Assembly (NCBI GenBank): GCA_963422735.1
Contig: OY730476.1
Coordinates: 1,952,001 to 2,016,000 of the forward strand
Reading direction: 5' to 3'
Length of the DNA stretch: 64,000 nucleotides
DNA from: Candidatus Latescibacterota bacterium
GTDB lineage: Bacteria > Latescibacterota > UBA2968 > UBA8231
This document shows positions 1 through 16,891 of this stretch, in pieces. Made by a program: the position numbers and the translations under genes. The first letter of the stretch is position 1; each line of letters starts with the position of its first letter. A model generated the notes under the pieces. That model saw nothing but the letters and a program-made list of their open reading frames with translations. It had not been told where the DNA came from and did not search any database.

Positions 1-1233
1 GCCGTACCCGGCTCCAAAAGCTACACCAACCGAACGCTGCTAGTTGCGGCACTAGCCAACGGGGAATCGCACCTTACGGATGCACTCTTTAGCGAAGATA
101 CCGACTACATGGTCCAAGCGTTGCGCAAACTCGGCATCTCTATAGAGGCCGATCCAAAGGCGGCCAGCTTCGTGGTCGCAGGCAACGGTGGACGGATTCC
201 CGTCGATGGTGCCGAACTGTACATTGGCAATTCGGGCACTACTTCGCGGTCGATCACAAGCTATGTCGCGCTCGGCAATGGGACCTTCATTATCGATGGC
301 GACGCGCCCATGCGCCAGAGCCGACCGATTGCCGACCTACTTGACGCGCTCGGCCAGCTCGGGATTGATGCACGCTCGCGCTTTGCCAACGGATGCCTTC
401 CCGTAGAGGTGCGAGCCAAGGGGTTCAGAGGCGGAAAAACCCAGCTCGACGCCAGCAAAAGTAGCCAGTTTCTGACTTCGCTGCTGCTTGTCGCCCCCTA
501 TGCCGACAACGGCTTAGAGATCGAGATGGTCGGCGAGTTTAAGACCGAATATATCGACATCACTATGGCGGTAATGCAGTCATTTGGGATCGAGGTAGAA
601 CGCGACGATTACCGGCGTTTTCGCGTCGCCGGCGGTCAATGCTATGAGCCCCGCGCTTACGCCATTGAGCCGGACGCTTCCAATGCCTCGTACTTCTTTG
701 CTGCCGCTGCGTTCAACGGCGGCCGGGTACGCGTAGCCAACATTGCTGCCGACTCAGCCCAAGGCGATATCCACTTCGTCGATGTACTCGAGAAAATGGG
801 ATGCACGGTCAACCGCTACGCCCACGGAGTCGAGGTGATCGGGCCGGACCAACTCAGGGGAATAGACGTCGATATGAAGGCCATATCGGATACCTCGCTG
901 ACGCTAGCCGCGATCGCGCCCTTTGCCAAGGATCCAGTGCGCATCCGCAACATCGAGCACACGCGCTGGCAGGAGACCGACCGGATTGCCGCCATGGTCG
1001 CCCAACTGCGGCGGCTTGGTGTGGAAGTAGAAGAACACAGAGATGGCGTTACTATTGCGCCGTCTAAGCCCAAAAGCAGCAGCATCGATACCTATAAGGA
1101 TCACCGGGTGGCTATGAGTTTTGCCCTAGTCGGATTGCGAGTGCCCGGAATCCGCATCAACGACCCAGGATGCGTCGGCAAAACCTTTCCGACGTACTTC
1201 GATGTCTGGGATCAGATAAAAGGATTGACGTAA
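1..1233 (+). CDS. aroA: 3-phosphoshikimate 1-carboxyvinyltransferase (EPSP synthase), 5' end outside window
   Basis: Frame is open from base 1 (AVPGSKSYTNR...). Motifs PGSKS, GNSGTT, SSQF, ETDR and DHRVAM are characteristic of EPSP synthase. Confidence 0.97.
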   Translation, partial: AVPGSKSYTNRTLLVAALANGESHLTDALFSEDTDYMVQALRKLGISIEADPKAASFVVAGNGGRIPVDGAELYIGNSGTTSRSITSYVALGNGTFIIDGDAPMRQSRPIADLLDALGQLGIDARSRFANGCLPVEVRAKGFRGGKTQLDASKSSQFLTSLLLVAPYADNGLEIEMVGEFKTEYIDITMAVMQSFGIEVERDDYRRFRVAGGQCYEPRAYAIEPDASNASYFFAAAAFNGGRVRVANIAADSAQGDIHFVDVLEKMGCTVNRYAHGVEVIGPDQLRGIDVDMKAISDTSLTLAAIAPFAKDPVRIRNIEHTRWQETDRIAAMVAQLRRLGVEVEEHRDGVTIAPSKPKSSSIDTYKDHRVAMSFALVGLRVPGIRINDPGCVGKTFPTYFDVWDQIKGLT

Positions 1234-1263
1234 GAAGAAGGCCGGCGCTGGTGAAAGAAAGGT

Positions 1264-1306
1264 CAAAACACAAGTGCCCTACCGGTCCGGTTCGCCGGTA
1301 GGGCAC
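1264..1306 (-). terminator. Intrinsic terminator for the minus-strand operon (possibly bidirectional)
   Basis: 12-bp perfect stem GTGCCCTACCGG (1274-1285) / CCGGTAGGGCAC (1295-1306), followed on the minus strand by TTGTGTTTTG. It lies between convergent genes. Confidence 0.75.
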
Positions 1307-1333
1307 CTAAGCCTCTTGCCGCTTGAAGGGTAC

Positions 1334-2695
1334 TTATTGAGTAAATTGGGTCACATTGGCGATGCCACCCGGCTGGGTCAACGCATAGACAATTAGGTTC
1401 ACTCCGAACTGCAACCCGCGCTCTCGTGCATCGGCCAACGGATCTCCCCAGTACCAACTAACATTTAGGTCGCTAAAAACCACCGCAACCCGACCGCGCA
1501 GTTCCAACATCTCCAAGTCGAAAACATTGCCAGCGGGTGCGCCGCCCATAGGCGGACCATCGGGGAAATCCCAGAAGCTGTAGTAGAGCTCGTGGCTCTT
1601 GGGCACTTTCTGCCACTTAGAGCCGTCGCTACCTAGCACCAGCGGATCTTTCATCAGAGCCTTGAACTGGCGATCAAACGGAGTACCCGAAACCCCGGCC
1701 TCCTTGCCTTCAAGCCCGTTCTCAGCATCGCTTTGGCGAATTTCCTCAGCATAAAGGAAACCACCGTTCTTGAGATATTCGCCTAGGTTGGTTTTCTCTG
1801 TATCGCTGATCTGTAAGACGGCATCGTTGCCCGTCACATAAATCATGGGGGCGTTCATGATGCGCGGATCCGAAAATTCCAAGGTCGTGCCCTCAATTCG
1901 GGCATTGATTTGGGTATGGTCGCGCATATAGCGCATCAACTCCTCTACCGCTGTTGGGAACCGATCTCTGTTCTTGTCTGCGATATCGTAGTCAATGACC
2001 GTCATGTTAAAGAAGCCGCGGATATTGCGTTTATTTTCTGGATCCTGAATCAAGATCGCTTGGTAGCGGCCGATGTCCAGGTCGCCGACGTTGAGCAATT
2101 CATGCCTCAGGCTCAGTGCCTCTTGCACCGGGGCCGACGTTTCGCCCAGTTCGATCATCGCGACCTCGTCGAAGGCCAGCTCTTCGGCTTTGGCACCTGA
2201 AAAGGCACCCAAAACCTGCGTACCAGGCAAGACCGAACTCAGGAGGTCGCTACCTACCGCGCTAACATCGGCTATAGCCGATATATCCTGTGGCAAGTCC
2301 GGTGGTGCCATCGACTGGAGCTTCTCCATCTGAACTTCGGATATCTCGGGACGCTTGGCTAGATCGAAGTTCTTTTCGAGAATTGGCGGAGGAGCGCGGA
2401 AAATGATTAGCTCCTCCTTTCTCTCTGCTTCGCCAATGCCAAAGAGATAATCATAAACGAAGACGCCAGCGTGAATGGCTACCGAGAGCACAAAGGCCAC
2501 GCTCATGCTCATCCGACGACCGGTGGTAGCCGTATATAGGGCGTATAGCAGCACCCCGGCACCCGCCAAACTAGCGGCGATCACTACCCACTTGGACAGG
2601 ATAAAAAGTACGTGAATGAGCAAGGCCGCGCCGACCGCTATATAGGCCGTTTTTTGGCGCTGAGCCTTTACTGCTTTCTTATACTCGTCTACCAC
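1334..2695 (-). CDS. Membrane-anchored DUF4159-domain protein with TonB/TolA-like S-x3-H helix and Pro-containing linker
   Basis: Three N-terminal hydrophobic segments, the last containing LSVAIHAG, then FRAPPP. The C-terminal ~200 aa has a DUF4159-like pattern (PMIYVTG...LGEYLKNGGFLYAEE...HELYYSFWDF...GRVAVVFSD...FGVNLIVYALT). Confidence 0.7.
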   Translation of the reverse strand: MVDEYKKAVKAQRQKTAYIAVGAALLIHVLFILSKWVVIAASLAGAGVLLYALYTATTGRRMSMSVAFVLSVAIHAGVFVYDYLFGIGEAERKEELIIFRAPPPILEKNFDLAKRPEISEVQMEKLQSMAPPDLPQDISAIADVSAVGSDLLSSVLPGTQVLGAFSGAKAEELAFDEVAMIELGETSAPVQEALSLRHELLNVGDLDIGRYQAILIQDPENKRNIRGFFNMTVIDYDIADKNRDRFPTAVEELMRYMRDHTQINARIEGTTLEFSDPRIMNAPMIYVTGNDAVLQISDTEKTNLGEYLKNGGFLYAEEIRQSDAENGLEGKEAGVSGTPFDRQFKALMKDPLVLGSDGSKWQKVPKSHELYYSFWDFPDGPPMGGAPAGNVFDLEMLELRGRVAVVFSDLNVSWYWGDPLADARERGLQFGVNLIVYALTQPGGIANVTQFTQ

Positions 2696-2732
2696 AGTTC
2701 TTCCCCCTCTTGGAAGAGCCTAGAAACCTCAT

Positions 2733-3140
2733 TCAGTTGCGCTGTGGTTCCGTGGCGATGACCTGATCGACGACGCCCACTTGGCGAGCAATATCCATGA
2801 TCTGGACGATTTGCCCGTGCGTGGAGCGCTCGTCTCCCTGGATGATAATCATCGTGGTGTTGTCCAGCAGTTGTCTCTTCGCCTGCAATTCCTCTTTGAG
2901 GGTTGCAAAGGTCACCGACTTGTGGTTCAGCTTCATGTTGCCGTCCTGATCCACGACGATAAAAAGGTTCTCCTTCTCCGGAGCCTGAGCCTCTTCGGCC
3001 TCGGGCAATTTGATATCCAAACCCGGAGTAATGGCGAACACAGCGGTCACCATGAAGAAGATGAGTAGCTGAAAGACCACGTCAATCATCGGCGTTAGAT
3101 CGGGCATGGTCAGTTCTTTTTTTTCTACTCTCTCAGCCAT
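2733..3140 (-). CDS. exbD: ExbD/TolR family biopolymer transporter
   Basis: DLTPMIDVVFQLLIFFMV transmembrane motif with the conserved Asp, and C-terminal IQGDERSTHGQIVQIMD. Confidence 0.93.
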   Translation of the reverse strand: MAERVEKKELTMPDLTPMIDVVFQLLIFFMVTAVFAITPGLDIKLPEAEEAQAPEKENLFIVVDQDGNMKLNHKSVTFATLKEELQAKRQLLDNTTMIIIQGDERSTHGQIVQIMDIARQVGVVDQVIATEPQRN

Positions 3141-3170
3141 CTATCTCATGCCTCCCTAAGAAGGCCGCCC

Positions 3171-3824
3171 TTAGGCAGCCTGCGTGCCTTGCCAGCGGCG
3201 CAGTAGAGCGTCCACAAAGCCGTGGCCGTATGCTTCAAACTCCACTGCCTTGCCCGTGGCGCGGTTGCTAAAGTACGTGAAGATGGCAATTGAAGGCACA
3301 GCGATCACCAGACCGGTAACTGTGGTGATCAGCGCTTCGGAAATACCTGCGGCGACGATCGTCGGCTCACCGAGACCTTTTTCCGCAATGCCTTCAAAGG
3401 CGTTGATCATACCGTTGACCGTGCCCAGCAGACCGAGCAACACCACGGACTTGGACACGAAGTCGATAACGGCCAGATACCGTTCCAGATACCCTAAGGC
3501 GGCGCGTTCAATTGTGCCATTCATTTCCTCGCGCATCTCCTCCATCGTGCGTTGCTCTCGCGACAAGTGCTCAAAGCGTTCGATCCCCCCGCCGTACACC
3601 TCGCCTTCGAGCTTGCCGACCTCAGCGCAGTACTCCTTGAGCTGGTCGATGGAAGCCCCCGAGTCTATACGTGCGTTGACGTCGTTGGTGATTTCGGCCA
3701 ATTCATCCTCGGAGCGCAGCCGTGCATAAGTCCAGATGCGCTCGAGAAAGAACGCAATGGAAAGCATAGACCAGAGCCCTAAAGGATACATGAAAGGTCC
3801 GCCTTCTCGAAAAAGTTCAATCAT
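3171..3824 (-). CDS. exbB: MotA/TolQ/ExbB proton channel family protein
   Basis: GGPFMYPL...ER N-terminus, LLGLLGTVNGMINAF and GISEALITTVTGLVIAVP motifs; directly upstream of exbD. Confidence 0.93.
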   Translation of the reverse strand: MIELFREGGPFMYPLGLWSMLSIAFFLERIWTYARLRSEDELAEITNDVNARIDSGASIDQLKEYCAEVGKLEGEVYGGGIERFEHLSREQRTMEEMREEMNGTIERAALGYLERYLAVIDFVSKSVVLLGLLGTVNGMINAFEGIAEKGLGEPTIVAAGISEALITTVTGLVIAVPSIAIFTYFSNRATGKAVEFEAYGHGFVDALLRRWQGTQAA

Positions 3825-3866
3825 TTTCTTTATCCCTCCTTAAGTTAGGACGCAAAGAAATCAAAG

Positions 3867-6800
3867 TTAGAGGACGCGAGCTTCCTGCATTACTTCTAGC
3901 TGCTCTCTGGCATAGTCCACCTGCGTCACGTACTTGGGGTTGTCGCCATAGTTGTCGACGACTTCTTGAAAGACGGCACCGGCTTGGCGAAATTCCTCTT
4001 GGGCCATATAGGCGGCACCGATGTTGACCAGTGAATTGACGGCCTGGTCGCTCTTGGGGTACTTCTGCTGTACTTCCTTGAAGATCGCCATTGCCTCGTC
4101 GTAATTCTTCTCAGCTAAGAGATTTTCGCCCGTTGCATAAAGATTATAGGCGTCTATCTCAGCCAAATGCCCGAGCAGGGTCCTTGCCTTTTTTGGCAGC
4201 GCTCGATCTTGGGCAATCAGCTTGTCAGAGGGAAAACGCTCCAAGAAAGTCTGGTAGCTCTCGGTAGCCTTCTCGTAATCCTTGAGGCCGTAGTAGTAGT
4301 CTCCGAGCGTAAATTGGCTGCGTGCCCCATAAGTACCATCGGGATATTCAGCGACGATCCGCTCGAAAACCGGCACCGCTTCTTCCTTGCGGTCGAGGTT
4401 GATCAGGCACCAAGCCTTGTTGTAGAGCGCATCATCCACATGGCTCGACTTAGGATAGCCCTTAATGATTCGGTCATAGAAGACCATGGCATCTAGGAAG
4501 TTCTGGTTTTTGTCCTCTATGCCACTCCTGTTGGTCATGTTAAACAGGGCATCGCCAGCGCGAAAAAGCGCCTCAGACGCATAGCGGGACTGCGAATACT
4601 TGTCTGCTAGGCTAGCAAAAACATCGCTGGCAGCGCGCCATTTACCCATCCGATAATGCGCCCAAGCATCGTAGTAATAGGCATGTACAGCACGCTCGTC
4701 TTCGGGATATTGGGTGTAATAGGCATTGAACGCCTTTGACATCGCTGGTAGCACTTCGATATTGCCGTTAGCCGATAGCCTGTTATAGGCTACGCCGATT
4801 TGGAACTGGGCATTTTTGGCCCAAGCAATCTGTGGGTAGTTTTCGATAATGGTGTTATAAGTGGCAATCGCTTGGACAAACTGCTCCGACCTGTAGAAGC
4901 AATTGCCTTGTACAAAGAGCGCGTTGGCAATGCTCTCGGCATTGATGGCCAAGTCAATTAGCTCCTGAGCCGCCTCAATACTCTGCTGAAACTTATCGAG
5001 TTTGAAGTAGGCATTGGCCAAGCGAACGAGTAAGCGCTCCCGGTCTTCGCTAGAGGTAGTAGTAGCCAACATCTCCTCATAGATGCGCACCGCTTCCTCT
5101 GGATTGCCCTTCTTTTCTGCCATTGAGATTTTCTGCAGCCGCGCCGAACGCACCAAGCTCTCGTCTCCTGAAGCAATGACCTCGTCCAGCAGCTTCTCCG
5201 CTTCGTCGTCATTGCCTTCCGCAGAGTACGAAAGTGCCATCGAGAAAGTGACCTTTAGCTGCATCGCCTTGGGGATCTTGGTATCCAATAGCCACTTGTA
5301 ATCGATCAGCGCACGGTCGTAACGGCCCGAATAGTGGTAGGCCAATGCACGGCCGTAGCGGGTGTCGCGAATGACATCGCTTTCTGGGTACTCTCCAAGC
5401 ACCATGGTGTAGCGATCAACTGCGTCGACATAGTTTTTATTGTTGAGGTCGAGTTGGGCCATCTGGAAATGGGCCCTAGCCTCCAAGTCGCGGTCGCCAG
5501 TCACACCTTCTAGCAATTGATTGAGCAGCACACGCCCCTCAGCGATGCGATCTTGGGAAATGTAGATATTGGCCGCCTCAATCAGCGCGGCGATGTACGT
5601 CTCTCGGGCATCGCGGCCAACCTTGGAAAAAGCAGTGATGGCCTCGTCTTTCCGACCTTCATCTCGGTAGAGAATACCAAGGCCATAGTAAGCATCAGCC
5701 GTATGCTGCGTATCCTGATAGTTCTCCGTTATGGCCTTGTAGGCTTCAATGGCCTCCTCAACCTTCTGCTGCTCGTAGTTGAGCCGGGCGATGCGCAATA
5801 AACACAACGGCGCTTGGTCTGAGCGGGGGAAGTTATCCACTGCCTGTGTGTAGCTTGCGATAGCCTGCTCCGCCACGCCGAGTTTTTCGGCAGACCAGCC
5901 TGCACTATAGAGTGCTGCGGAGCGCAAACCCGTATCGCTATCTGGGTAATCCACCAGCAGTTTTAGATAGTCTTCACGGGCAGCGGCGTAGTCTGCGGCG
6001 AAGTACTTGGCTTCGCCTTTCTGATACTGAGCGTTGGCTGGATAAGGAGTATCCCCGTAGAGTTCAATTACTTGGTTGTAAGCAGTCCACGCCTCGTCGA
6101 ACTTATCCCACTCCATGTAGTTGTCGCCAATTCTCATTTGCACCTTGGCCTTGTAAAAGCGCTCTTCGGCAGTTTCTTGGGCGGCAATCAACTCTTGGTA
6201 GGCTTGCTCGAACTGGTCTGTTTTGCGGAAGATCTCAGCGACGCGCAACGAGGAGGTCTCAAAGAGCTGCCGATAGTTTTCAAAGTCGACATTCTTACCT
6301 TCGCGAAACGAGCCACGCAAGAGTTCAAACATCCGATCGTAGAGGTTGCGCACATCGCGGTAGGCTTCAATCGCCTCCACATCGCGCCCCATCTTGTCGT
6401 AGGCGTTGGCCTTTAGGTAGAGGGCTTGGGCAATGACTGGACTATTGGGATACTTGTCGAGGACTATCTGGGTCATATCAACGGCTTTAGCGTACTCGCC
6501 CTTTTCATAGAGCGCACTGGCGATGCGGAACTGGGAATCCGGCGCATAGCGATCTTGCGGATAAGCCGCCAACATGCCGTTGAGCGTTTCTATGGACTGG
6601 TCATATTCTTTTGTGTTAAACTCGCTCCAGCCCGCGTAAAAATACGCCTTGCCGGCCTCTTTCGTCTTGGGAAACAACTCGACATAGCGCTTGTATTCCT
6701 TTGCTGCCTCGCCGTACTCTTTGGCGAGGAAGCGGGTCTCGGCGACTTGGAACTGCACCAATGACCTGAAAGCCTCGGCTACGCTCCCTAAGTCAATAAC

Positions 6801-7112
6801 TTGGCGATAGGCTTCCACCGCTTTTTCATGTTGCCCGCTCTTTTTGTAGGCATTGCCTAGCTGATACCAAGCCGCCGCAACTACGGGCAATTCCAGTTCG
6901 TTGCCAAACACCACCCGTACACTGTCGGTGCGCACGGCCTTGCTATTGAACTTGACGATCTTTGAATACTCGATGATCGCCCCTTCAAACTCGCCAAGGG
7001 CGTAGAGAGATTGTCCGGCGTCAAAACTGGTCTTCAGATTTTGCGGCACCGGTAGAAAAAGGCTAGCTCCTAGCCCCAATCCCAGCGCGATGAGTCCAGC
7101 CCAGACCGTCAT
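3867..7112 (-). CDS. Large periplasmic TPR-repeat protein (BamD/CpoB-like repeats), 1081 aa
   Basis: N-terminal hydrophobic segment, then many repeats of type A..Y..G...Y...Y.EA...Y...L..YP.S; AAGGAG RBS upstream of the ATG. Confidence 0.88.
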   Translation of the reverse strand: MTVWAGLIALGLGLGASLFLPVPQNLKTSFDAGQSLYALGEFEGAIIEYSKIVKFNSKAVRTDSVRVVFGNELELPVVAAAWYQLGNAYKKSGQHEKAVEAYRQVIDLGSVAEAFRSLVQFQVAETRFLAKEYGEAAKEYKRYVELFPKTKEAGKAYFYAGWSEFNTKEYDQSIETLNGMLAAYPQDRYAPDSQFRIASALYEKGEYAKAVDMTQIVLDKYPNSPVIAQALYLKANAYDKMGRDVEAIEAYRDVRNLYDRMFELLRGSFREGKNVDFENYRQLFETSSLRVAEIFRKTDQFEQAYQELIAAQETAEERFYKAKVQMRIGDNYMEWDKFDEAWTAYNQVIELYGDTPYPANAQYQKGEAKYFAADYAAAREDYLKLLVDYPDSDTGLRSAALYSAGWSAEKLGVAEQAIASYTQAVDNFPRSDQAPLCLLRIARLNYEQQKVEEAIEAYKAITENYQDTQHTADAYYGLGILYRDEGRKDEAITAFSKVGRDARETYIAALIEAANIYISQDRIAEGRVLLNQLLEGVTGDRDLEARAHFQMAQLDLNNKNYVDAVDRYTMVLGEYPESDVIRDTRYGRALAYHYSGRYDRALIDYKWLLDTKIPKAMQLKVTFSMALSYSAEGNDDEAEKLLDEVIASGDESLVRSARLQKISMAEKKGNPEEAVRIYEEMLATTTSSEDRERLLVRLANAYFKLDKFQQSIEAAQELIDLAINAESIANALFVQGNCFYRSEQFVQAIATYNTIIENYPQIAWAKNAQFQIGVAYNRLSANGNIEVLPAMSKAFNAYYTQYPEDERAVHAYYYDAWAHYRMGKWRAASDVFASLADKYSQSRYASEALFRAGDALFNMTNRSGIEDKNQNFLDAMVFYDRIIKGYPKSSHVDDALYNKAWCLINLDRKEEAVPVFERIVAEYPDGTYGARSQFTLGDYYYGLKDYEKATESYQTFLERFPSDKLIAQDRALPKKARTLLGHLAEIDAYNLYATGENLLAEKNYDEAMAIFKEVQQKYPKSDQAVNSLVNIGAAYMAQEEFRQAGAVFQEVVDNYGDNPKYVTQVDYAREQLEVMQEARVL

Positions 7113-7170
7113 TTGTGCATCTCCTTGTCTAGGTTCCTAAGTTTGGAGTCCATCGGGGTCTTTTTGTTGT

Positions 7171-8106
7171 TTAGAATTCATAAGCAAAGGAAAACCGGTG
7201 TGCGCCATTGGTCTCGGTCAGATCCAAGCCGATGTCATAGGCATAGTCGAACACCAACTGATTCCACTGATAGCCCAACCCCGCATTCAAGCCCCCTCCG
7301 GCGTCCTCAGACAACAAACGACGACCCCCCGCCCGCAACAGCAACCCCTCCACCAACTGCGTCTCCCCACCAACAACCAACCCCTGATCCGAGCCCTCCC
7401 CCGTCAAGTCCCGACGCACGTATTGAACCGACACCAACGACTGACTGCTCAGACGATACCCCACCCCCACATGCACATCCATCGGCAACGTACCCGCATC
7501 CGCGTCCCCTGCAACCTCGCCATACGCCACATTCGGCTGGTTGATATTCTTCAACAACACCCCCACCTGTGCCCCTTGCACCGGACTCTGCCACAGCAAA
7601 CCCAAATCCAAGCCTACGTTGCCCGCACGCTGGTTCGACAGCGGATCAGGCCGACCCTCATCGTCGGGAATTGACCCCACACTCCAAAACAGATACTTGG
7701 CCGACAACCCCACCTGCAGCCGACGCTGCACCTGATACGACAGCGACACAAACGCCCCGTTCTCGCTCATCAGCGACGAGCCAATCCGCTCATAACCCAA
7801 ACCCAAGCCCATCCGGTCACCCAAAGGCTGTGCATAGGAGACCACGTGCTGACCCAGATCGTCGCCTTCAATACCCGCATACAAAAGCGATACATTGGTG
7901 TAGGCCACCTGACGCTGAGCCACCTGACCCAACCCGGCCGGATTGGCAAACACGGCATCCGCATTGTCGGCCACCGCCACAAAGCTGTTGCCCAACCCCT
8001 GGGCCCGTGCCCCCGAACCCACATTCTGAATGTTGACGACCCCGTCACTTGATTGGGCGACGAACAGCAAGCCGACTAAAACACTAAGCATTTTCAGAGA
8101 TTTCAT
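7171..8106 (-). CDS. PorV/PorP(SprF)/FadL-like outer-membrane beta-barrel protein
   Basis: Signal peptide, the motif GSGARAQGLGNSFVAVADNADAVFANPAGL, alternating beta-strands and C-terminal HRFSFAYEF; AGGAGG RBS. Confidence 0.78.
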   Translation of the reverse strand: MKSLKMLSVLVGLLFVAQSSDGVVNIQNVGSGARAQGLGNSFVAVADNADAVFANPAGLGQVAQRQVAYTNVSLLYAGIEGDDLGQHVVSYAQPLGDRMGLGLGYERIGSSLMSENGAFVSLSYQVQRRLQVGLSAKYLFWSVGSIPDDEGRPDPLSNQRAGNVGLDLGLLWQSPVQGAQVGVLLKNINQPNVAYGEVAGDADAGTLPMDVHVGVGYRLSSQSLVSVQYVRRDLTGEGSDQGLVVGGETQLVEGLLLRAGGRRLLSEDAGGGLNAGLGYQWNQLVFDYAYDIGLDLTETNGAHRFSFAYEF

Positions 8107-8141
8107 AATCCCAACTCCTCCTTGGTGGTCTCGCTTAAAGG

Positions 8142-8888
8142 CTAGTTTGCCTTAGCGACTCTAGGAACGACCGTACCGTCCTTGTAAATCTTGCCAATAT
8201 CTCGGACGAATTTATAGGAAATATTGGTGGTCTCCACCGGCTCGTTGCGAAAGTCAAATCGCAGGATTACATCGAGTACTTGGACTTCGATATCACTCAC
8301 GTCGGGGTGGAGCACGGGAAAAACGACGAATCCCTCTGCCTCTTGGCCGCTGAAGATCTCCTCGTCTTTGAGCATCGTCCGCCGCAGCAAGTCGCGGCGC
8401 TCTTGGTAGCGGGCATATTCGTTGCCTCTATAACCTATGGCATAGGCGCGATAATACGTGTCGAGCTGCTCAAAGTTGAGGCTCCAATACTCGCGCTTAT
8501 TGCTCGCTTTGACGACAATCTTGCTCGGATCAATTTTGACTTTGGGGTAGGCATAATTCTTAATGCTGAGACGGAAGACAGTGAATCTCTGTTTTTCTTC
8601 GTCTGTTCCCCAAAATATCGTGTTGCCAAAGGTATAGGGATTTGTAGACTTAGGACCCGCTTGGGAATTGTTAAAAAACTGGCGATTCAATTCCTCGTCA
8701 GTCATCGGTTTGAGTCGCACTTCAAAGCGGTCCTGGGCAAAAGTCAGGGTCCCGTCATCTGCCACGCTGATAGACGAGGTCTGATCTTGGCCGGGCTGCA
8801 ATGTACCTGTGTAATAACTATATCCACAGCCCAGCACACCCGAGCCGATAATCAAGGTCAAGAATAATATTCGTGTGAAATTCATCAT
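8142..8888 (-). CDS. Lipoprotein of unknown function, paralog A
   Basis: Lipobox-like VLG|C. Shares VADDGT, PMTDEELNRQF, NPYTFGN, RFTVFR, YPKV and RFDF motifs with 25197..25955. Confidence 0.85.
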   Translation of the reverse strand: MMNFTRILFLTLIIGSGVLGCGYSYYTGTLQPGQDQTSSISVADDGTLTFAQDRFEVRLKPMTDEELNRQFFNNSQAGPKSTNPYTFGNTIFWGTDEEKQRFTVFRLSIKNYAYPKVKIDPSKIVVKASNKREYWSLNFEQLDTYYRAYAIGYRGNEYARYQERRDLLRRTMLKDEEIFSGQEAEGFVVFPVLHPDVSDIEVQVLDVILRFDFRNEPVETTNISYKFVRDIGKIYKDGTVVPRVAKAN

Positions 8889-9838
8889 TCAGAAACTCCT
8901 CGGTGGTAAAGCTCTGAGTGCAAAGAGGCTTTCAAGCGCCCCCACGACCTCGGTTCCACAGCCGTAAAAGTACCCTCTAGCGGCATCAGGATCAAGTCTG
9001 TGAAGCGATCGGCAAAGCGATACGAATTGTGTTGGCCCGAAAGCGACCACTTAGCATCAAAAAGCTCTGAATGCACATCGAAGTCATTGAACTCTACGTT
9101 AAAACCAAGAATTTCACCTTCCCGCAAGAGGTGCTCTTCACTTTGAAAGACCGCATTGATATCGACGCGATCAAAGGGCACGAGCATGACTTCGTAGCTC
9201 GTCACTCCTTCGCCTCCCAAGACACCTACAAACTCGACCGCCGCCCTAGTGTAAGGACCGTTGGATAGCGCGTACCAAGCAGCGGCTGAAAAATTAACAA
9301 AAAAATCCTTGTCGGGCGACGGGCCAGCCAAAACGAAATGATTGGCCTTAGCCCCGTTGCGCCGCCTTTGCTCTTCGTGGCTCAACTCAGTGAAATTTGC
9401 GAATTGTCCACCTGAGTGATCCGCATCGATAAACAATTCTATCGCGTCGTCTTGGAAAAGCACCATGGCACTACCGGCGGAACGATCAATCTGGTGTATA
9501 TCATCGCGAACTTGAGCGGCGATGTAGAGCCTGTTCTCCGATTTATTCCACCCAACCATGAGACGGGCAGCAAAATCATCCGAATCGCTCGCCTCAACTT
9601 CTGGACTAATCAGGTCGTGAAATTGACTCGTTAATATGGCGTAGGAGTTACCTACAATTTCCCAATCTCTCAAATCCCCGTCAATGACGGGAACTAAGTG
9701 ATCGGGAAATTGAAAAGCTCTGTAGGCTACTCCTTCGGGGTAATGACCCAAAACCGGTTTAGCCGAGCCTACTGCTATCTGTAGCACCAAAGCTAAAAAA
9801 AACAACCACGACCAGCACCTCGGCCAACGTCTTCTCAT
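8885..9838 (-). CDS. Secreted CBM9/DOMON-like sugar-binding protein with C-terminal WGxLK tail
   Basis: Start moved to ATG 9838, because the TTG at 9898 is the -35 box of a promoter. Signal peptide; PVIDGDLRDW, LYIAAQVRDD, DAIELFID and GFNVEFND are CBM9-like; tail TAVEPRSWGRLKASL. Confidence 0.75.
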   Translation of the reverse strand: MRRRWPRCWSWLFFLALVLQIAVGSAKPVLGHYPEGVAYRAFQFPDHLVPVIDGDLRDWEIVGNSYAILTSQFHDLISPEVEASDSDDFAARLMVGWNKSENRLYIAAQVRDDIHQIDRSAGSAMVLFQDDAIELFIDADHSGGQFANFTELSHEEQRRRNGAKANHFVLAGPSPDKDFFVNFSAAAWYALSNGPYTRAAVEFVGVLGGEGVTSYEVMLVPFDRVDINAVFQSEEHLLREGEILGFNVEFNDFDVHSELFDAKWSLSGQHNSYRFADRFTDLILMPLEGTFTAVEPRSWGRLKASLHSELYHRGVSE

Positions 9839-9869
9839 CCGTTTTTTGATGTCTTTCAAATCGAGATGT

Positions 9870-9898
9870 ATGATAATCAATGGCCTAAGACGTGTCAA
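9870..9898 (-). promoter_or_regulatory. Sigma70-type promoter for the 9838->1334 operon
   Basis: Minus strand reads TTGACA-N17-TATCAT (-35 at 9893-9898, -10 at 9870-9875). Confidence 0.75.
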
Positions 9899-10120
9899 GA
9901 TATATTAGAGACAGCAGTGGAAACAATGGGTTTATAACGGATAAAACCAATAAATAACAATAGGTTGGGGTTATTCAACCCTCGTTCAACTCTTTGCAAA
10001 TCACCTCTTCCGTGTCTCGACTTCAGTGGTTATCTGAGTGATTGATGACAAAGGCCCCTCTTTTTTGCGCTCGTCGGCTCGAGCTGACTATCTTGAGATA
10101 TGCATCACTATACTATTATC

Positions 10121-10248
10121 ACTGACGTTACGTAGTAGGGACCGAATCGAGCGCAGACCAAAGGATTGTCATTCCCGCGGCAAGTGGGAATCCAGCGGGG
10201 GAGGCGGGGCGCAACCGCACGTTTTGCGGCAAACTGCGTAACATCAGT
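10121..10248. mobile_element. MITE-like element, copy 1 (128 bp)
   Basis: Terminal inverted repeats ACTGACGTTACGTAGT / ACTGCGTAACATCAGT (14/16 match) and an internal palindrome GTCATTCCCGCGGCAAGTGGGAATCCA (10168-10194). A second copy lies at ~58490. Confidence 0.65.
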
Positions 10249-10394
10249 ATATTATATGAATAGCGAAATGTCGACCAAGATGCGCGATTAGCCCGGTCGG
10301 TGTGGACTGGGTTGGGGCGTTCAACTGCCGTCGGCGTCCCTGTTCTGCCCGTCGCAGGCAGCCAAGGGCTTACATTCTTGCGTGGAGGTGTTCG

Positions 10395-13049
10395 ATGATC
10401 AGGTTGTTGTTAGCGGTGTTCGGCGTCGCGTTCGTACTCTGCAATGGCTATGCCGAAGTCAAGCGGTGGCGGATAGGCGACGATGTGCATCCCTGGACTC
10501 TGCGGCCGGTTACCGGTCGCCTTGACTTGGGCCGCAGTTGGGCCGTCGAGCTAATCGCCGACGACGATGGTGACGGACTCATCGACGAAGACCCCGTCGA
10601 GCTAGTTGATAACGACGACGACGGCCAGATCAACGAAGACCCCGTCGATCCGCAAGTCGACAACGACGACGACGGCCAGATCAACGAGGACCCGGCTAAT
10701 ACTCTCGACGACGACGGCGACGGGCTGATCGACGAAGACCCCGTTGAGCTGATCGACAATGATGGCGACGGACTCATTGACGAAGACGGTCCCGACCCGC
10801 AGATCGACAACGACAACGATGCTCTGCTCAACGAGGACGGGCTGTATACTCCCTACGATGACGACTGGGACGGCCAGATCAACGAGGACCCGGCTAATAC
10901 TCTCGACGACGACGGCGACGGGCTGATCGACGAGGATCCGCCGCTGCCCGAACACGGTGGGGGCGTTACCACTTGGCTTCGGCCAGTGCGTCTGGACAGC
11001 CTGCGCAACCTCGCCTACCTGCTCAACCAGCGCTTCAAGGCCGGCGAGTTCGGCGGCATCATCCCCGGGAAGGATTCCCAGCGCCCCTTTATGGTGGTGC
11101 CGAGCGAATACGGCTTCCGCCGCGAGGTCGCCGACCCCATCTCGGCCGACTACTGGGCGGTAGCGGGGGTGATTGACCGCAAAGAGGCCGAAAAGGCTGT
11201 CGATGGCAACCTGAAGACAGACTTCACTTCTACCAAGTATGGCCGCGGTGGGATTGCCGTCAATCTGATGGGCTACTACTATATTAACCGCATCGTCTTC
11301 CGCCCGCAGCCGACCTTGCCTGGCGGCACCATCGCCGACTACTACATCCGCTACGGCGACCAGACCTCCATCAACAGGGACTCTGAGACCATTCAAGCGA
11401 ATCGGACACTAGTTCAAACCGTCCGGGGCCAATTCAACCCAGTGATCAAGGATCTCAGATTCGACCCACCATTTATCTCTGGTCGTATCGACGTGATCTC
11501 AATTGATAAAGAGGGAAAACTCAGCCAGACCGCCGAAGCCGGCTATTTCGGCGACGGCTACAGCATCGATGGGCGGTACACCTCGGCCATCATCGACGTG
11601 GGTACGCCCACCCCGCGCATCCGTCGCTACGACCGCGAGATCGAGCAATTCGCCGGCTCGCAGCGCGATGCCTATGAAAGCCAATTTCTCCTCGATGTTG
11701 TCGGCGATCAAGTCAACTGGGGCAAGGTGCGATGGCGCGGGCATCGCGATGGCCTCGAAGGTGACGTGCGCATCCAGTTCCGCGTTGGCAACACCCTCGA
11801 CACCCACATCTACGCCCGCCGCTTGGGGCCGGGTCTTTCGGACACTCAGGATGAAGACGGCAATCCCCTCGATATGTTTTCTTGGATCAAGCTCCCTGAA
11901 GGCCGCGTCCCCGAGCGCGAATTGCAATACAACGAACTAGGTATTGACTTGGGCAGCGACGGTCCCTTGGGCTGGAGCTTCTGGTCTGCACCTTTCAAGC
12001 TCGAAGACGCCCTCATTGACGAGAGCTTGCCCGAATCCGAGTGGCGCGACGCCGGCGTCCAGCTACCTCTGCCCGGCGGAACTCGCTATATCCAGTTCCG
12101 TATCTTCTTTGACTCCACCCAGCATAGCGCGGCCCTGTTGGACTTCATCGAGTTCGACTACGACGCGCCACTGGTCTCGGGCGGAATCGTCGCCGAAATT
12201 TTCCCTCCGCGCGTCACCTTGGGCGAGGAGACGGCTTTCCGCTACTTTGTCCGCCCGTTTTTCAAAACGGGCGAGGCTACCTCCTTCAATCGGATCGAGA
12301 TCGCCGTGCCCAGCGCGGACACGCGCATCGACACCTTGCGCTTTGACGGTCAAGACTGGACCGAAATCGCCGCTGGCACGGCCGCCGATTCTCTGCGCGA
12401 TGTCCATCCCATCCGCCTCGCTCCAGCAGAAGGCCGCGCCGATAGCTTAGGACAATTTGCCCAGAGCGTAGTCACGGATCTGCTCACCGGCTCGTCCAAA
12501 CTGCACATCAAGCTACCTGCAATGGGTGCCGAGCACTTTCAATTCGACCAGAACATCGAGATCGTCTTCCGCTCCAAGCTCTTCCGTGGCTCAGAGGAGT
12601 TCACCAGTTCGGTGTGGAATGACCAAGGCGGCCCCGGTGCCAAATTCATCCCGCAACCGGCCGAGGATGGGGATGCCACACCCGACATAGCCACCAATGC
12701 CCTCCTCGTGGTCGCCGACGAGATCGACCAAGTCGTCAATATCCCCCACATCGCCCCAAACCCCTTTACCCCCAACGGCGATGGTATTAACGACGAAGTC
12801 ACTTTTTCCTTCGACCTTTTCCTCGTACTCGATCAGGTCGATGTCCAAGTCGAAATCTACGATCTGTCTGGCCTCCGCATCGCCCAGATCCAGACAGACG
12901 GCTCGACTGCAGGCAGCCTCCAAGTCGAGTGGGACGGTCGCGACAGCCAAGGCCAAGTCGCCCCCCCGGGCCTCTATCTCTACCGGCTCGCCATCGATTT
13001 GGACAACACCTCTACTGAGCGCTCGGGAACCCTATCGTTGGCCTATTGA
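10395..13049 (+). CDS. Large secreted protein with acidic Ca-binding-type repeats and C-terminal T9SS type-B/FlgD-Ig-like domain (paralog 1)
   Basis: Start ATG 10395 after GGAGG; signal peptide; 8 D-[DN]-D-x-D-[GA]-x2-[DN]-E-D repeats; C-terminus PNPFTPNGDGIND...YDLSG...WDGRD..G..APPGLY...LAY. Confidence 0.85.
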   Translation: MIRLLLAVFGVAFVLCNGYAEVKRWRIGDDVHPWTLRPVTGRLDLGRSWAVELIADDDGDGLIDEDPVELVDNDDDGQINEDPVDPQVDNDDDGQINEDPANTLDDDGDGLIDEDPVELIDNDGDGLIDEDGPDPQIDNDNDALLNEDGLYTPYDDDWDGQINEDPANTLDDDGDGLIDEDPPLPEHGGGVTTWLRPVRLDSLRNLAYLLNQRFKAGEFGGIIPGKDSQRPFMVVPSEYGFRREVADPISADYWAVAGVIDRKEAEKAVDGNLKTDFTSTKYGRGGIAVNLMGYYYINRIVFRPQPTLPGGTIADYYIRYGDQTSINRDSETIQANRTLVQTVRGQFNPVIKDLRFDPPFISGRIDVISIDKEGKLSQTAEAGYFGDGYSIDGRYTSAIIDVGTPTPRIRRYDREIEQFAGSQRDAYESQFLLDVVGDQVNWGKVRWRGHRDGLEGDVRIQFRVGNTLDTHIYARRLGPGLSDTQDEDGNPLDMFSWIKLPEGRVPERELQYNELGIDLGSDGPLGWSFWSAPFKLEDALIDESLPESEWRDAGVQLPLPGGTRYIQFRIFFDSTQHSAALLDFIEFDYDAPLVSGGIVAEIFPPRVTLGEETAFRYFVRPFFKTGEATSFNRIEIAVPSADTRIDTLRFDGQDWTEIAAGTAADSLRDVHPIRLAPAEGRADSLGQFAQSVVTDLLTGSSKLHIKLPAMGAEHFQFDQNIEIVFRSKLFRGSEEFTSSVWNDQGGPGAKFIPQPAEDGDATPDIATNALLVVADEIDQVVNIPHIAPNPFTPNGDGINDEVTFSFDLFLVLDQVDVQVEIYDLSGLRIAQIQTDGSTAGSLQVEWDGRDSQGQVAPPGLYLYRLAIDLDNTSTERSGTLSLAY
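10560..10940 (+). repeat. Intragenic tandem repeats encoding 8 acidic DxDxDG units
   Basis: Units of ~16-17 codons; includes a perfect 65-bp direct repeat at 10671-10735 and 10869-10933. Confidence 0.9.
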
Positions 13050-13145: not shown

Positions 13146-15242
13146 ATGGCACGCAGCATCCGCTTTTTTTTATGCGTGCTCTTACTAGCCGCCCTTGCAC
13201 TTCGGTTGGGCTATTTGTGGGAACACCGCGCCAGTCCCTTCTTCGATGCGCCCGTAGTTGACGCCCAGACCTTCTTCAAACAGGCACAGGCCCTTGCCAG
13301 CGGCCCGTTCTGGGGAGGGGACGAACCGTATTGGCAGCCCCCTCTCTATATCTACCTGCTAGCGTTCGTTTACTGGCTTCTGCCGGCCTCGTACTTCGTC
13401 GGCATCCGGCTCGTACACGTGGGCCTCGGCGTTCTTTCCTGCCTATTGGTATACGCGTTGGCCCGACACGCCTTTGGCGAGCAGGTCGGTCGCATTGCCG
13501 GCGTCATGGCGGCCTTGTGCGGCTCTTTGCTCTACTTTGAGGGCGAGCTACTGGCCGTACCGGTGGAAGTCTTCCTCAATCTCCTGCTCCTATACAGCCT
13601 GTTACTGGCGTGGAGACGCGATCGCGGGCGCAACTGGGTGTTGGCCGGCTTCATCGCGGGCCTTGCGGCCCTCACTCGCCCCAATATCTTGCTCTTTATC
13701 GCGGCCTTTTGCGCTTGGGCACTGTGGCACCGGCGCACATCTGCATACCGTTCCCTGTTCTTTTTTATCGTTCCCATAGCCTTGGTCATCCTGCCCGTCA
13801 CCTATCGCAACTGGACCATTGAGCCGGACCTCGTCTTCATCTCTTCCAATGCCGGCGTAAACTTCTACCTCGGCAACAACGCCGACTACGAGCGTACGGT
13901 CTCGCTGAGCCCAGGCATGCAGTGGGAGACAGTGATTGCCGAAGCGGCGAACTCAGGGCATGAAACCGCAGCCGCCCTATCTGCCTTTTTTTTTCGCAAA
14001 GCCCTCGATTACATAACCGCGCAGCCCCTCGACTATCTCGGCCTGCTCTGCAAGAAGGGATTCTACTTTTGGAGTGGCCCAGAGACCAAGCGCAACCAAG
14101 ACATATACTACGCCCGCCAACACTCGCGGATTTTGAGTCTCTTGCTCTGGGATTGGCACGTGTCGATTCCCTTCGGCCTGATCGGCCCGCTGAGTTTGCT
14201 CGGCTTAGGACTGAGCATGAGGGGTGAGTGGACGCCGCCGATTGCCTTGCTGCGACTCTACGCTCTCGTGTACACGGCCTCGGTCGTACTCTTCTTTCCG
14301 GCGGCCCGCTACCGTATGCCGGTCGTGCCGGTGCTGATAGCTTTTGCTGCTTTTGCCGCTTTTCAGCTCTATCTAGGCGTACGCCGCAGAGCCTATATCC
14401 GCACCACAGTGCTTGCCCTGCCTCTTGGGGGTCTATTGGTCTTGTGCAACCTCGCCGAGGCCGCGCCGACCGCAGAAGACGCCCAACTCTACTTCGACCT
14501 AGGCGAGGTGCATTTGCGTAAGCGAGACTACGCCCGGTCTGCACGTTACTCGCGCCAAGCACTGGAATTGAACCCGGAGTACAACTACGCCCGCCACAAT
14601 CTGGCCGTTGCGTACTTTCACCAAGAGCACTATGGGGAAAGCGAGCGAGAGGCCCTGCAGACCCTAGCGGAAAATCCCCGACGCGCCGACACTCGTGTAC
14701 TCCTAGGCCGGATTTATCTAGCGACTCATAAGCCGCAGCAGGCCGAAGCGCATCTGCGCCACGCTCTCGAACGATATCCAGAGTCCGGCATGGCCCACTA
14801 CTACTACGGCCGCCTGCTCTACCGCCAAGGACACTACGTTGCGGCCACAACCCACTTGCAGCATGCGCTTTCTTGGCAGCCACAGGACTTCTGGCTGCAC
14901 TACGAACTAGGAAGGGCCTTACAGCAGGCCGGGCAAGCCGAGGCTGCACTCGGCCTGTACCACCAAGCCCTCTCTCTGGAAAGGCGACCCGAGGCCCTAA
15001 ACGCCATCGGTGCCCTGCACCTGCTCGCTGGACGCACACAAGCGGCACGGACGCATTTTCTCCAAGCCCTAGCGCTAGCTCCAGACAACCCAGAAGTCCA
15101 CATCAACCTCGCGCTTATCGAACTCGAACATGGGGACCACGCCGCGGCCATTGATCGGTTGCGCCAAGTCCTTATGCGCGATCCTGATCCGCGTGCGCAG
15201 CGCTTGCTCGACGAGACCTATCGCCGCCTCGAATCGCCATAG
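13146..15242 (+). CDS. GT-C (ArnT/PMT-like) glycosyltransferase with C-terminal TPRs
   Basis: Multiple TM helices, VVDAQT...YWQPPLY, LAALTRPN and RYRMPVVP motifs, then ~250 aa of TPR repeats. Confidence 0.8.
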   Translation: MARSIRFFLCVLLLAALALRLGYLWEHRASPFFDAPVVDAQTFFKQAQALASGPFWGGDEPYWQPPLYIYLLAFVYWLLPASYFVGIRLVHVGLGVLSCLLVYALARHAFGEQVGRIAGVMAALCGSLLYFEGELLAVPVEVFLNLLLLYSLLLAWRRDRGRNWVLAGFIAGLAALTRPNILLFIAAFCAWALWHRRTSAYRSLFFFIVPIALVILPVTYRNWTIEPDLVFISSNAGVNFYLGNNADYERTVSLSPGMQWETVIAEAANSGHETAAALSAFFFRKALDYITAQPLDYLGLLCKKGFYFWSGPETKRNQDIYYARQHSRILSLLLWDWHVSIPFGLIGPLSLLGLGLSMRGEWTPPIALLRLYALVYTASVVLFFPAARYRMPVVPVLIAFAAFAAFQLYLGVRRRAYIRTTVLALPLGGLLVLCNLAEAAPTAEDAQLYFDLGEVHLRKRDYARSARYSRQALELNPEYNYARHNLAVAYFHQEHYGESEREALQTLAENPRRADTRVLLGRIYLATHKPQQAEAHLRHALERYPESGMAHYYYGRLLYRQGHYVAATTHLQHALSWQPQDFWLHYELGRALQQAGQAEAALGLYHQALSLERRPEALNAIGALHLLAGRTQAARTHFLQALALAPDNPEVHINLALIELEHGDHAAAIDRLRQVLMRDPDPRAQRLLDETYRRLESP

Positions 15243-15250
15243 GAGGTTCT

Positions 15251-16882
15251 TTGTCTGGCTACTTCCAAGCTCTCTTGTTCCTTGCTTGTGCGTTGCCCGT
15301 CTCTAGTGCTGGACCGATCTTTACCGATGTGACCCAAGCCGCTGGCATCTCCTTCATCAATGAATCTGGCGGGGCCGACAAGCAGTACATCATCGAAACC
15401 CAATCGGCTGGCTGCGGCTTTTGGGACTACGATAGCGACGGCCAGCTCGACATCTTTCTCACCAGCGGCGTCCGCTCCGACTCGACGACAGGCACCGCGC
15501 TCTATCGCGGGATAGGCCACGGTGCGTTTAGCGATGTGACCGCAGGCTCTGGCACGGAGCTAGGCGGCTGGAATATGGGCGTGGCCTTTGCCGACTACGA
15601 CAGCGACGGCGATACCGACCTCTACCTCACCCGTTGGGGCCGGGACGTGCTTTTGGCTAACGAAAGAGACGGGACCTTCAAAGACGCCACCTCGACCGCG
15701 GGCCTCGGCGCGGCAGGCTGGGGGATCGGCGCGGCCTTTGCCGACTACGACAACGACGGCGATACCGACCTCTATGTCGCCAACTACATAACTTATGAAC
15801 GCGGTGGCCCGCCCTTTTACAACCGTTGGTGTAAGCACAACGGCGTACCCGCCGCCTGTGGCCCAAGCGGAGCCCAAGCTCAACCGGATTTGCTCTATCG
15901 CAACGAAGGCAATGGCACCTTTACTGACGCTAGTCTACAAGCGGGAATTCGCGGCCCGAATTACTACGGCATGGGCGCAGCTTGGTCCGACTTGGATGGC
16001 GACGGAGACCTCGACCTCTACGTCGCCAACGACGGGCATCCCAACAGCCTCTATCGCAATGACGGGGGCCGCTTCGTCAACATCTCGCTGGCGACCGGTA
16101 CGGCGCATAGCGGCGACGGGCGTGCCCAAGCCGGCATGGGCGTCGCCTTGGCCGACTTTGACAACGACCTACAGGTGGATGTTTTCGTGACCAATTTCTC
16201 ACAGGACCACAATACCCTCTACAGCAACGAGGGCAATGGCTTCTTCGCCGACGTCAGCGGACGCGCTGGCCTAGCCGGCAGCAGCCGCCCCTTTATGGGC
16301 TGGGGCACCTTCTTCTTCGACTACGACCACGACGGCTGGCAGGACCTCTTCATCGCCAACGGCCACCTAATGCCAGCCATTGAACGCGCTGGCGGCGGTC
16401 TCCGCTACCGCCAACGCAACCAGCTCTACCGCAACTTAGGCAACGGGCGCTTTCGGGAAATCGCCAACGAGCCGGCTCTTGCCACCGAGCGAGTTAGTCG
16501 CGGCGCAGCCAGTGGCGATTACGACGACGACGGCGACCTCGACATCTTGGTCGCCAATCTCGACGACGTCCCCTCCCTCTTGCGCAACGACGTCGAGGAC
16601 AAGGGCCATTGGCTGCTGTTGACACTGCGCCGGGGACCTACCGAGGCCATCGGCACACACGTGCGGATCCGTGCTGGCGGCCTACATCAGATGCGCGAAG
16701 TGCAGACCGGCTCTAGCTTTCAAGCTCAGAGCGATACGCGCTTGCACTTCGGTTTGGGGCCAGCCACTGCGGCCGATATCGAAGTCACGTGGCCGGGCGG
16801 TGAGCGCCAAGTCTTCCGCGCCGTGCCTGCCAACCACCACTACGCCATTCACCAAGGCGTCAATCGCCTCATGCCGGAGTAG
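15251..16882 (+). CDS. CRTAC1/ASPIC-UnbV family FG-GAP repeat protein
   Basis: Repeated FADYDxDGDxDLY motifs and C-terminal AIG..V.......QMREV..GSSF.AQ....LHFGLG...WP.G; TTG start after AGGAGG. Confidence 0.9.
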   Translation: MSGYFQALLFLACALPVSSAGPIFTDVTQAAGISFINESGGADKQYIIETQSAGCGFWDYDSDGQLDIFLTSGVRSDSTTGTALYRGIGHGAFSDVTAGSGTELGGWNMGVAFADYDSDGDTDLYLTRWGRDVLLANERDGTFKDATSTAGLGAAGWGIGAAFADYDNDGDTDLYVANYITYERGGPPFYNRWCKHNGVPAACGPSGAQAQPDLLYRNEGNGTFTDASLQAGIRGPNYYGMGAAWSDLDGDGDLDLYVANDGHPNSLYRNDGGRFVNISLATGTAHSGDGRAQAGMGVALADFDNDLQVDVFVTNFSQDHNTLYSNEGNGFFADVSGRAGLAGSSRPFMGWGTFFFDYDHDGWQDLFIANGHLMPAIERAGGGLRYRQRNQLYRNLGNGRFREIANEPALATERVSRGAASGDYDDDGDLDILVANLDDVPSLLRNDVEDKGHWLLLTLRRGPTEAIGTHVRIRAGGLHQMREVQTGSSFQAQSDTRLHFGLGPATAADIEVTWPGGERQVFRAVPANHHYAIHQGVNRLMPE

Positions 16883-16891
16883 AATAGAACT

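Follow-up and report, generated by a model that had tools for sequence, protein, structure and literature searches.

Gene Content and Start Site

In this study, we analysed a window of 64,000 nucleotides (nt) from a Candidatus Latescibacterota bacterium (assembly GCA_963422735.1, contig OY730476.1, positions 1,952,001 to 2,016,000 of the forward strand), in which a gene at 1334..2695 on the minus strand encodes a DUF4159-headed, TonB-like protein of 453 amino acids. In the list of open reading frames (ORFs), this gene has a GTG start, and its interval includes the stop codon. It directly follows a pair of motor genes on the same strand, namely an ExbB/TolQ-type subunit of 217 amino acids (3171..3824, minus strand; PF01618, E 7.6e-23) and then an ExbD/TolR-type subunit of 135 amino acids (2733..3140, minus strand; PF02472, E 3.7e-28), and 37 nt separate exbD from the DUF4159 gene. 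The initial annotation had placed directly after exbB-exbD a gene encoding a transmembrane (TM) helix, a FRAPPP segment, a linker and a DUF4159 domain, and this arrangement was confirmed down to the codons of the anchor residues. We interpret the product as probably being a periplasmic force transducer of the TonB/TolA kind, with DUF4159 as its output domain in place of the TonB or TolA C-terminal domain.

The window ExbB matched ExbB and TolQ chains of the PDB at E ~1e-11, and the TM aspartate of ExbD (D20) was invariant across 32 aligned ExbDs. In NCBIfam, the TolQ/TolR models outscored the ExbB/ExbD models for the two motor subunits, with all scores under the cut-offs.

The DUF4159 gene is the last of a co-directional block of seven genes, all on the minus strand and with gaps of -4 to 58 nt, and the next gene after it is an aroA-like gene in convergent orientation. 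Before the motor genes, the block encodes a TPR protein of 1081 amino acids with a hydrophobic N-terminus (3867..7112), which matched many TPR families and has YbgF/CpoB-type repeats in 10 stretches, and a PorV/PorQ-like outer-membrane barrel of 311 amino acids (7171..8106; NF033709, E 1.8e-21, under the curated cut-off). These are preceded by a 248-amino-acid protein with a lipoprotein-like N-terminus and without a Pfam or NCBIfam match (8142..8888), and by the first gene of the block, for a CBM9-like secreted protein of 337 amino acids (8885..9898; PF06452, E 8.7e-6); the positions of both are conserved in related loci. A scan of 1000-10800 for promoters and terminators gave counts near shuffled expectation.

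The product of the window gene is likely a three-helix form, since a Shine-Dalgarno-like stretch, AGAGGGGGAAG, was seen on inspection a few bases 5' of the GTG at 2695 and residues 1-61 are conserved in 58 of 78 related loci. These loci were collected in a scan of species-representative genomes, and their proteins show 47-97% identity to the window protein. An alternative start at M62, an internal ATG that would give a single-helix, TonB-like product, was rejected: it has no comparable ribosome-binding site, and the same 58 loci keep residues 1-61 as protein.

Protein Architecture and Fold of the Head

Two additional N-terminal TM segments, one of them with ALLIH, had been proposed from the sequence, and both were found. 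TM1 (approximately residues 18-36; 2588..2644, minus strand) contains A24-x3-H28 (ALLIH) and lies inside the helix predicted at residues 2-58, and TM2 (approximately residues 37-56; 2528..2587, minus strand), the return helix of the hairpin, is a hydrophobic stretch followed by a TATTGRR loop and is conserved in the three-helix orthologues. TM3 (approximately residues 63-85; 2441..2509, minus strand) carries S71-x3-H75 in LSVAIHAG, encoded at 2485-2483 (S71) and 2473-2471 (H75), and corresponds in alignments to the sole anchor helix of one-helix relatives. By the positive-inside rule, the Lys/Arg-rich N-terminus and the TATTGRR loop would be cytoplasmic, so that TM1 and TM3 would both run from the inside to the outside and the head would be periplasmic.

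The AlphaFold2 model, built on 129 aligned sequences with a mean predicted local distance difference test score (pLDDT) of 79.2, has helices at residues 2-58 and 62-85 and a coil at residues 86-195, with pLDDT below 50 at residues 121-194. This coil forms the putative periplasmic linker (2111..2440, minus strand), which holds 9 Pro and 14 Glu per 110 residues, and it leads to the DUF4159 head at residues 196-448 (1352..2110, minus strand), where pLDDT is mostly above 90. Such a three-part build of anchor helices, coil linker and confident head supports the interpretation as a transducer.

The same architecture bears on a quite improbable alternative, in which the protein would be an accessory or regulatory motor subunit whose hairpin scaffold positions or gates ExbB-ExbD, as do extra membrane proteins of some TonB2-type systems, and a TonB_C protein encoded elsewhere would be the real transducer. 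The three-helix N-terminus, unlike that of TonB or TolA, is in keeping with such a role, but a long linker leading to a folded head befits a transducer and not a membrane-embedded accessory; moreover, the 11 of 69 readable orthologues that have one helix and no hairpin keep the position after exbD.

That the C-terminal part is DUF4159 rather than a TonB C-terminal domain held true on searching Pfam: PF13709 (DUF4159) matched residues 235-439 (E 4.3e-26, 92.1 bits against a cut-off of 25.9), and no other family, neither TonB_C (PF03544) nor VWA, was found at E<=0.01 in the 453-amino-acid protein. NCBIfam gave no match for it, and a Protein Atlas search with residues 55-200 returned no usable match. 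The Foldseek search suggested for the C-terminal domain retrieved the solved DUF4159 structure 4i66 as the sole match at E<=0.001 (E 5.3e-10, TM-score 0.77 on the target), and comparison by VIA gave Z 21.9 and a root mean square deviation of 2.0 over 188 aligned residues with 24% identity. A sequence profile (alignment A6) also found 4i66, and no others, among PDB sequences (E 2.2e-16).

After 4i66, VIA listed class-I glutamine amidotransferases, ThuA-like proteins and the IFT52 GIFT domain at Z ~8-9; there was no vWA entry among the 50 matches listed, an absence that leaves such similarity possible. Pfam places DUF4159, on structural grounds, in the clan of class-I glutamine amidotransferase-like domains (PMC4702930). 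The conserved turn at the nucleophile-elbow position, read from alignments and not from a structure-based residue mapping, is G311-G312-F313 and contains no Cys. In amidotransferases this turn carries the catalytic Cys, and as it reads G-G-F in this protein, we infer that the DUF4159 head serves in binding and not in catalysis, as a module of the class-I glutamine-amidotransferase/ThuA/GIFT fold type.

The fold also bears on a second alternative, in which the protein would be just a structural or enzymatic component of the envelope block, its DUF4159 domain tethered to the membrane on the periplasmic side; it would share a transcript with the motor without any mechanical coupling, and its TM His would serve another role or be inherited baggage. 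A fold within an enzyme superfamily would suit such a component, but the G-G-F turn, apparently without Cys at the nucleophile elbow, would argue against it, and with the further evidence given below we regard this explanation as unlikely.

Conservation of the Locus across Latescibacterota

Our own loci, on which the following pattern is based, are from Latescibacterota and metagenomic contigs. In 72 of the 78 related loci, ExbD precedes the DUF4159 gene on the same strand by no more than 358 nt. Four of the exceptions (L085, L100, L103 and L108) are contig ends; L086 has a split ORF whose surviving piece lies 798 nt downstream of ExbD, and L105 is a signal-peptide paralogue without ExbBD. Both ExbD and ExbB were present in 67 of the 69 loci having at least 1300 nt of upstream DNA, and all loci with DNA available there have the TPR and PorV-like genes ahead of the motor, in the order PorV-like/TPR/ExbB/ExbD/DUF4159 gene. 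In a phylum sample of 151 genomes, 92 had a match at E<=1e-20, including all 63 other sampled genomes of the window's own family, with 0/30 and 0/19 in two other families.

In four loci (L078, L079, L080 and L082), the heads are 63-75% identical to that of the window protein, whereas ExbB/ExbD are only 26-31% identical, and these orthologues have one S-x3-H helix. Two exbD genes were detected in L078, L079 and L082, and L079 has the order exbB-exbD-exbD. The motor genes of these loci appear to have been exchanged, and the link to the motor would have survived this change, since the heads stay close while ExbB/ExbD diverge. Synteny in 72 of 78 loci that held across a change of motor genes speaks against a tethered component that is co-transcribed but uncoupled.

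Anchor Motif and Post-Anchor Strand

The anchor alignment of the 78 related loci comprised 58 three-helix forms, 11 one-helix forms and 9 without a captured N-terminus, giving 69 readable orthologues. The His of TM1 was present in 58/58 three-helix forms, with Ala at the -4 position in 57 and Ser in 1, and the one-helix forms had S-x3-H in 11/11. Therefore, at least one A/S-x3-H helix of TonB orientation was found in 69/69 readable orthologues, which a tethered, uncoupled component would not lead one to expect. A wider set of 129 sequences was also aligned, in which the window protein was joined by 11 close homologues and by every one of the 117 representatives in the range of 250-480 amino acids from the 150 best 50%-cluster matches; in its TM3 column, His filled 68 of 78 filled rows, and the -4 position was Ala in 41, Ser in 24 and Gly in 7. 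On these alignments, the twin His-bearing anchor is a feature special to this lineage.

The anchor is comparable with that of TonB, in which Ser16/His20 touch TM1 of ExbB at residues Ser34/Trp38; TolA uses the same Ser-His pair, and two TolA helices have been seen on one TolQR motor by cryo-electron microscopy (PMC12215075).

Just beyond TM3, a conserved segment at residues 95-126 (2318..2413, minus strand) is a candidate D-box or motor box, and FRAPPP forms its residues 99-104. F99 and P104 were invariant in 29/29 proteins encoded directly after exbD, including three distant metagenomic ones, and the consensus of the strand reads L-I/V-R-F-Q-A-P-P-P-I-L-x-K-N-F-D-L-A-K-R-P-E-I-S-E-V-Q-M-E-M-L. 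The TonB D-box is a Pro-flanked strand of alternating hydrophobic and hydrophilic residues just past the anchor, captured by the ExbD dimer (PMC10907165). At the level of its residues, the L-I/V-R-F-Q-A-PPP segment resembles this D-box, short of the exact published pattern. The invariance of the post-anchor strand is a further point against a tethered component.

TonB, Tol and Other Motors in the Genome

The genome contains four TonB_C matches, all away from the window locus, and its motor-adjoining TonB (2743557-2744252) has a TonB_C domain and directly follows a different exbB-exbD-exbD. As this protein has S-x3-H followed by a strand similar to the post-anchor strand described above, it provides a parallel within the same genome; and since it sits after an exbB-exbD-exbD of its own, each of these motor loci would have its own candidate transducer.

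The three remaining TonB_C proteins (at 3270076, 4523631 and 109049) have no adjoining motor, and together with a TonB-dependent receptor in the window they favour an accessory subunit that works beside a TonB encoded elsewhere. This receptor (55547-58420, minus strand) has a plug, a barrel and a CarboxypepD_reg N-terminal domain and lies 53 kb from the motor. However, of the distant trio, one has no TM His, one has a signal peptide only and one is a 920-amino-acid TPR fusion, features that speak against any of them as the real transducer. The signal-peptide-only protein (G000:C1 4523631-4524833) has a C-terminal stretch near-identical to that of the conventional TonB and looks like a duplicated TonB_C on another N-terminal part.

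Two further exbB-exbD-exbD loci of the genome have no adjoining TonB_C gene. The first (L021, G000:C1 1245000-1264999) has a PorV-like gene, a 977-amino-acid protein and a 1090-amino-acid TPR protein upstream, and a 250-amino-acid lipoprotein-like gene and a 581-amino-acid protein downstream. In the second (L024, 2308000-2327999), a truncated DUF4159 gene (233 amino acids) lies two called ORFs upstream, one of these ORFs being on the opposite strand, and a 908-amino-acid protein of no family is encoded downstream. A tblastn search of plasmids with ExbB gave nothing useful.

DUF4159 Proteins beyond the Related Loci

DUF4159 was matched 10 times in the genome, and only the window gene lies directly after exbD. 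Three further paralogues, all of them full-length, combine a His-bearing helix with a Pro/Arg-rich linker but adjoin no motor; three have no His, and one is a short canonical form beside a PorZ-like gene. Near-identical paralogues of 446 and 447 amino acids, with an S-x3-H helix, a Pro/Arg-rich linker and DUF4159, are encoded 7 kb apart at G000:C1 355243-356583 and 363590-364933, beside glycosyltransferase, transglutaminase-like and sigma-54 activator genes and away from any motor.

A metagenome scan with a 29-member alignment of the wider family yielded 78 loci, which were screened by ExbB/ExbD profiles from the window genome and L079; many of these loci were too short to judge. Proteins with a TM His were encoded directly after exbD in L136, L140, L143 and L177, at distances of 4-115 nt, and 1568 nt after exbD in L135. 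A quick maximum-likelihood tree was made from 74 rows, leaving out rows below 330 amino acids or without a clear hydrophobic helix and hence L154, which is considered below. The rows after exbD fell into at least three separate parts of this tree, and all of them (21/21) have the TM His, which supports the interpretation as a transducer.

The rows upstream of exbB formed one His-less clade on this tree. Judging from gene order and the quick tree, this His-less clade upstream of exbB-exbD-exbD is a different and also recurrent link between DUF4159 and the motor.

Evidence against a Transducer

Several observations weigh against the transducer interpretation, and the first of these concern the anchor. 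The initial annotation had asked whether S-x3-H is conserved, and the TM3 motif proved not to be strict: among the 69 readable orthologues, position 75 is His in 55, Glu in 12 and Leu in 2, and position 71 is Ser in 43 and Ala in 26, so that what stood was the TM1 His together with the presence of an A/S-x3-H helix in every readable orthologue. Counted within the 58 three-helix forms alone, the TM3 position is His 44 times, Glu 12 times and Leu twice, a variation that a tethered component would readily allow. The SHLS spacing (Ser-x3-His-x6-Leu-x3-Ser) is not followed, as the residues at +7 and +11 from H75 are Asp82 and Gly86, and +7 from H28 is Lys35; the Leu-Ser half of SHLS is less conserved in TonB also (PMC12215075). 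On the motor side, the Ser34 and Pro190 columns of E. coli ExbB are kept in the window ExbB, but the Trp38 column is Ile, in an alignment that is weak in TM1, and none of the ExbB TM1 changes compared tracks the His-to-Glu change in TM3.

The remaining parts of the protein and the genome add to this list. The linker is acidic, and its 9 Pro among 110 residues do not make it proline-rich; the profile search that found 4i66 among PDB sequences reached neither TonB nor TolA chains at E<=10, and the three TonB_C proteins distant from any motor could use the window motor.

In the wider family, L154 encodes at 5869-6813 a 314-amino-acid DUF4159 protein that has a signal-like N-terminus but lacks both the His and a linker, 22 nt after exbB-exbD-exbD; a plain DUF4159 protein, secreted or anchored, can thus also occupy the tonB slot. 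Nine full-length loci (L144, L153, L155, L158, L165, L166, L171, L174 and L175) encode DUF4159 proteins of about 410 amino acids, with a TM helix without His, 0.9-1.9 kb upstream of a co-directional exbB-exbD-exbD, and three fragments were found at the same position. Conversely, His was present with no ExbBD within ~6 kb in L128, L129, L151, L176 and L178. The TM His state changes twice on the tree, giving one independent contrast for His against gene position; as this is a single independent pair, no statistics were applied, and the association between His and gene position is to be taken, on these sequences, as a pattern and not as a test.

The protein of L154, the His-bearing relatives without ExbBD nearby and the many contexts of DUF4159, of which one in ten in the genome is directly after exbD, are observations that speak for a tethered component.

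Despite these points, we consider a transducer the probable function of the window protein, because synteny in 72 of 78 loci, a His anchor in all 69 readable orthologues, a D-box-like strand and the parallel of the genome's own TonB point in the same direction. The proposal that DUF4159 is the output of a motor transducer thus stood as far as these four lines of evidence carry it, and from them we infer its coupling to ExbB-ExbD.

Comparison with Known Systems

With TonB, the window protein shares the slot after exbB-exbD, a predicted N-in/C-out Ser/Ala-x3-His helix, a Pro-flanked strand-like motif, a predicted disordered linker and a globular head; it differs in having no TonB_C, three helices with two His motifs, and an acidic linker. 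The partner of TonB is the TonB-box of a TonB-dependent transporter, whereas a partner of the window head can only be proposed. With TolA, the likeness lies in motor subunits that score nearer to TolQ/TolR, in a TPR protein of YbgF/CpoB-type repeats, and in the two helices per TolQR, which the two His helices of the window chain could mimic; unlike TolA, however, the window protein has no TolA domain III and is not encoded in a Tol-Pal operon. The latter follows from the genome (95% complete), in which TolB_N was not found, and from the weak best match to the Pal model, elsewhere in the genome, at 43 bits against a cut-off of 125.

The closest published parallel, which also supports the transducer interpretation, is the vWA-headed transducer cassette described by Williams-Jones et al. 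(Mol Biol Evol 2025, PMC12204202), with a TPR gene, tolQ, tolR, tolR and a protein that joins an SHLS helix to a vWA head by a disordered linker containing a motor box, reported from Proteobacteria, PVC bacteria, Bacteroidetes and Rhodothermaeota. The window cassette follows the same logic of TPR protein, ExbB, ExbD and a His-anchored protein with a disordered linker and a non-TonB head, but this head is DUF4159, glutamine-amidotransferase-like and without a VWA family match. A twin His-bearing anchor is absent from the description of the vWA-headed proteins in the text of that article, and its main text makes no mention of DUF, Latescibacter or amidotransferase. The initial claim of a new effector head therefore stands in that DUF4159 is distinct from vWA, but heads other than that of TonB on such anchors had already been published in the vWA case (PMC12204202).

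The head fold is shared with Hoch_4089 of Haliangium ochraceum (4i66, Z 21.9), a chain of 200-209 residues of unknown function, whose entry, unlike the window protein, describes no TonB-like anchor or linker. The Agl-Glt gliding machinery of Myxococcus, with its AglRQS motor, TonB-like GltG/GltJ, TPR proteins and outer-membrane barrels, performs a task other than nutrient uptake; its transducers have TonB_C-type domains, unlike the DUF4159 of the window protein. A full-text search for DUF4159 returned only the Pfam article of 2015 (PMC4702930), where it concerns clan placement alone, and literature searches on SxxxH with TonB, on force transducers, and on Latescibacteria with ExbB/TonB found no such protein described.

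Proposed Mechanism

If the protein is a transducer, its His-bearing helix or helices would dock on the outside of the ExbB pentamer, like Ser16/His20 of TonB, and the periplasmic dimer of ExbD would capture the post-anchor strand, like the D-box of TonB. Proton flow via ExbB-ExbD would then pull or re-orient the linker, and this work would reach the outer envelope through the DUF4159 head, whose partner there would most likely be one of two products of the operon, the PorV-like barrel and the giant TPR protein. Candidate cellular tasks are envelope maintenance and the handling of surface proteins or polymers.

A more speculative extension, to which we give rather little credence, is that A-x3-H of TM1 and S/A-x3-H/E of TM3 form a built-in double anchor that fills two outer sites of one ExbB pentamer, mimicking the arrangement of two TolA per motor, and that an undescribed family of envelope machines powered by protons has the DUF4159 head as its working end.

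Other Genes in the Window

Two large proteins of the window, at 10302-13049 (plus strand) and 32053-34536 (minus strand), have type IX secretion C-terminal sorting signals (CHU_C, FlgD_ig) and are encoded near the PorV-like gene of the operon. A second block at 23445-35629 (minus strand) resembles paralogous envelope cassettes of the genome and has no motor genes; it encodes a PpiC-type rotamase protein (561 amino acids), proteins of 258 and 301 amino acids, proteins of 916 and 1084 amino acids without a Pfam family, and an 827-amino-acid protein with a type IX secretion C-terminal signal. At 13146-21448 (plus strand), a run of TPR proteins alternates with FG-GAP/ASPIC proteins, and one of the TPR proteins has a PMT_2 glycosyltransferase-type membrane domain.

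Biological Significance

To our knowledge, just two outputs are well understood for motors of the ExbBD/TolQR type, namely TonB in the import of nutrients and TolA in maintaining the outer membrane. The vWA heads were proposed as a third kind of output in 2025 (PMC12204202). If the transducer interpretation is true, the window protein would add one more output to the ExbBD/TolQR motor family and would provide the first functional context for the widespread domain DUF4159. The twin His-bearing anchor would offer a natural test of the number of transducer helices per 5:2 motor. Furthermore, the PorV-like barrel, the giant TPR protein, the motor and the arm would together constitute an unstudied, conserved envelope machine in a phylum without a cultured model.

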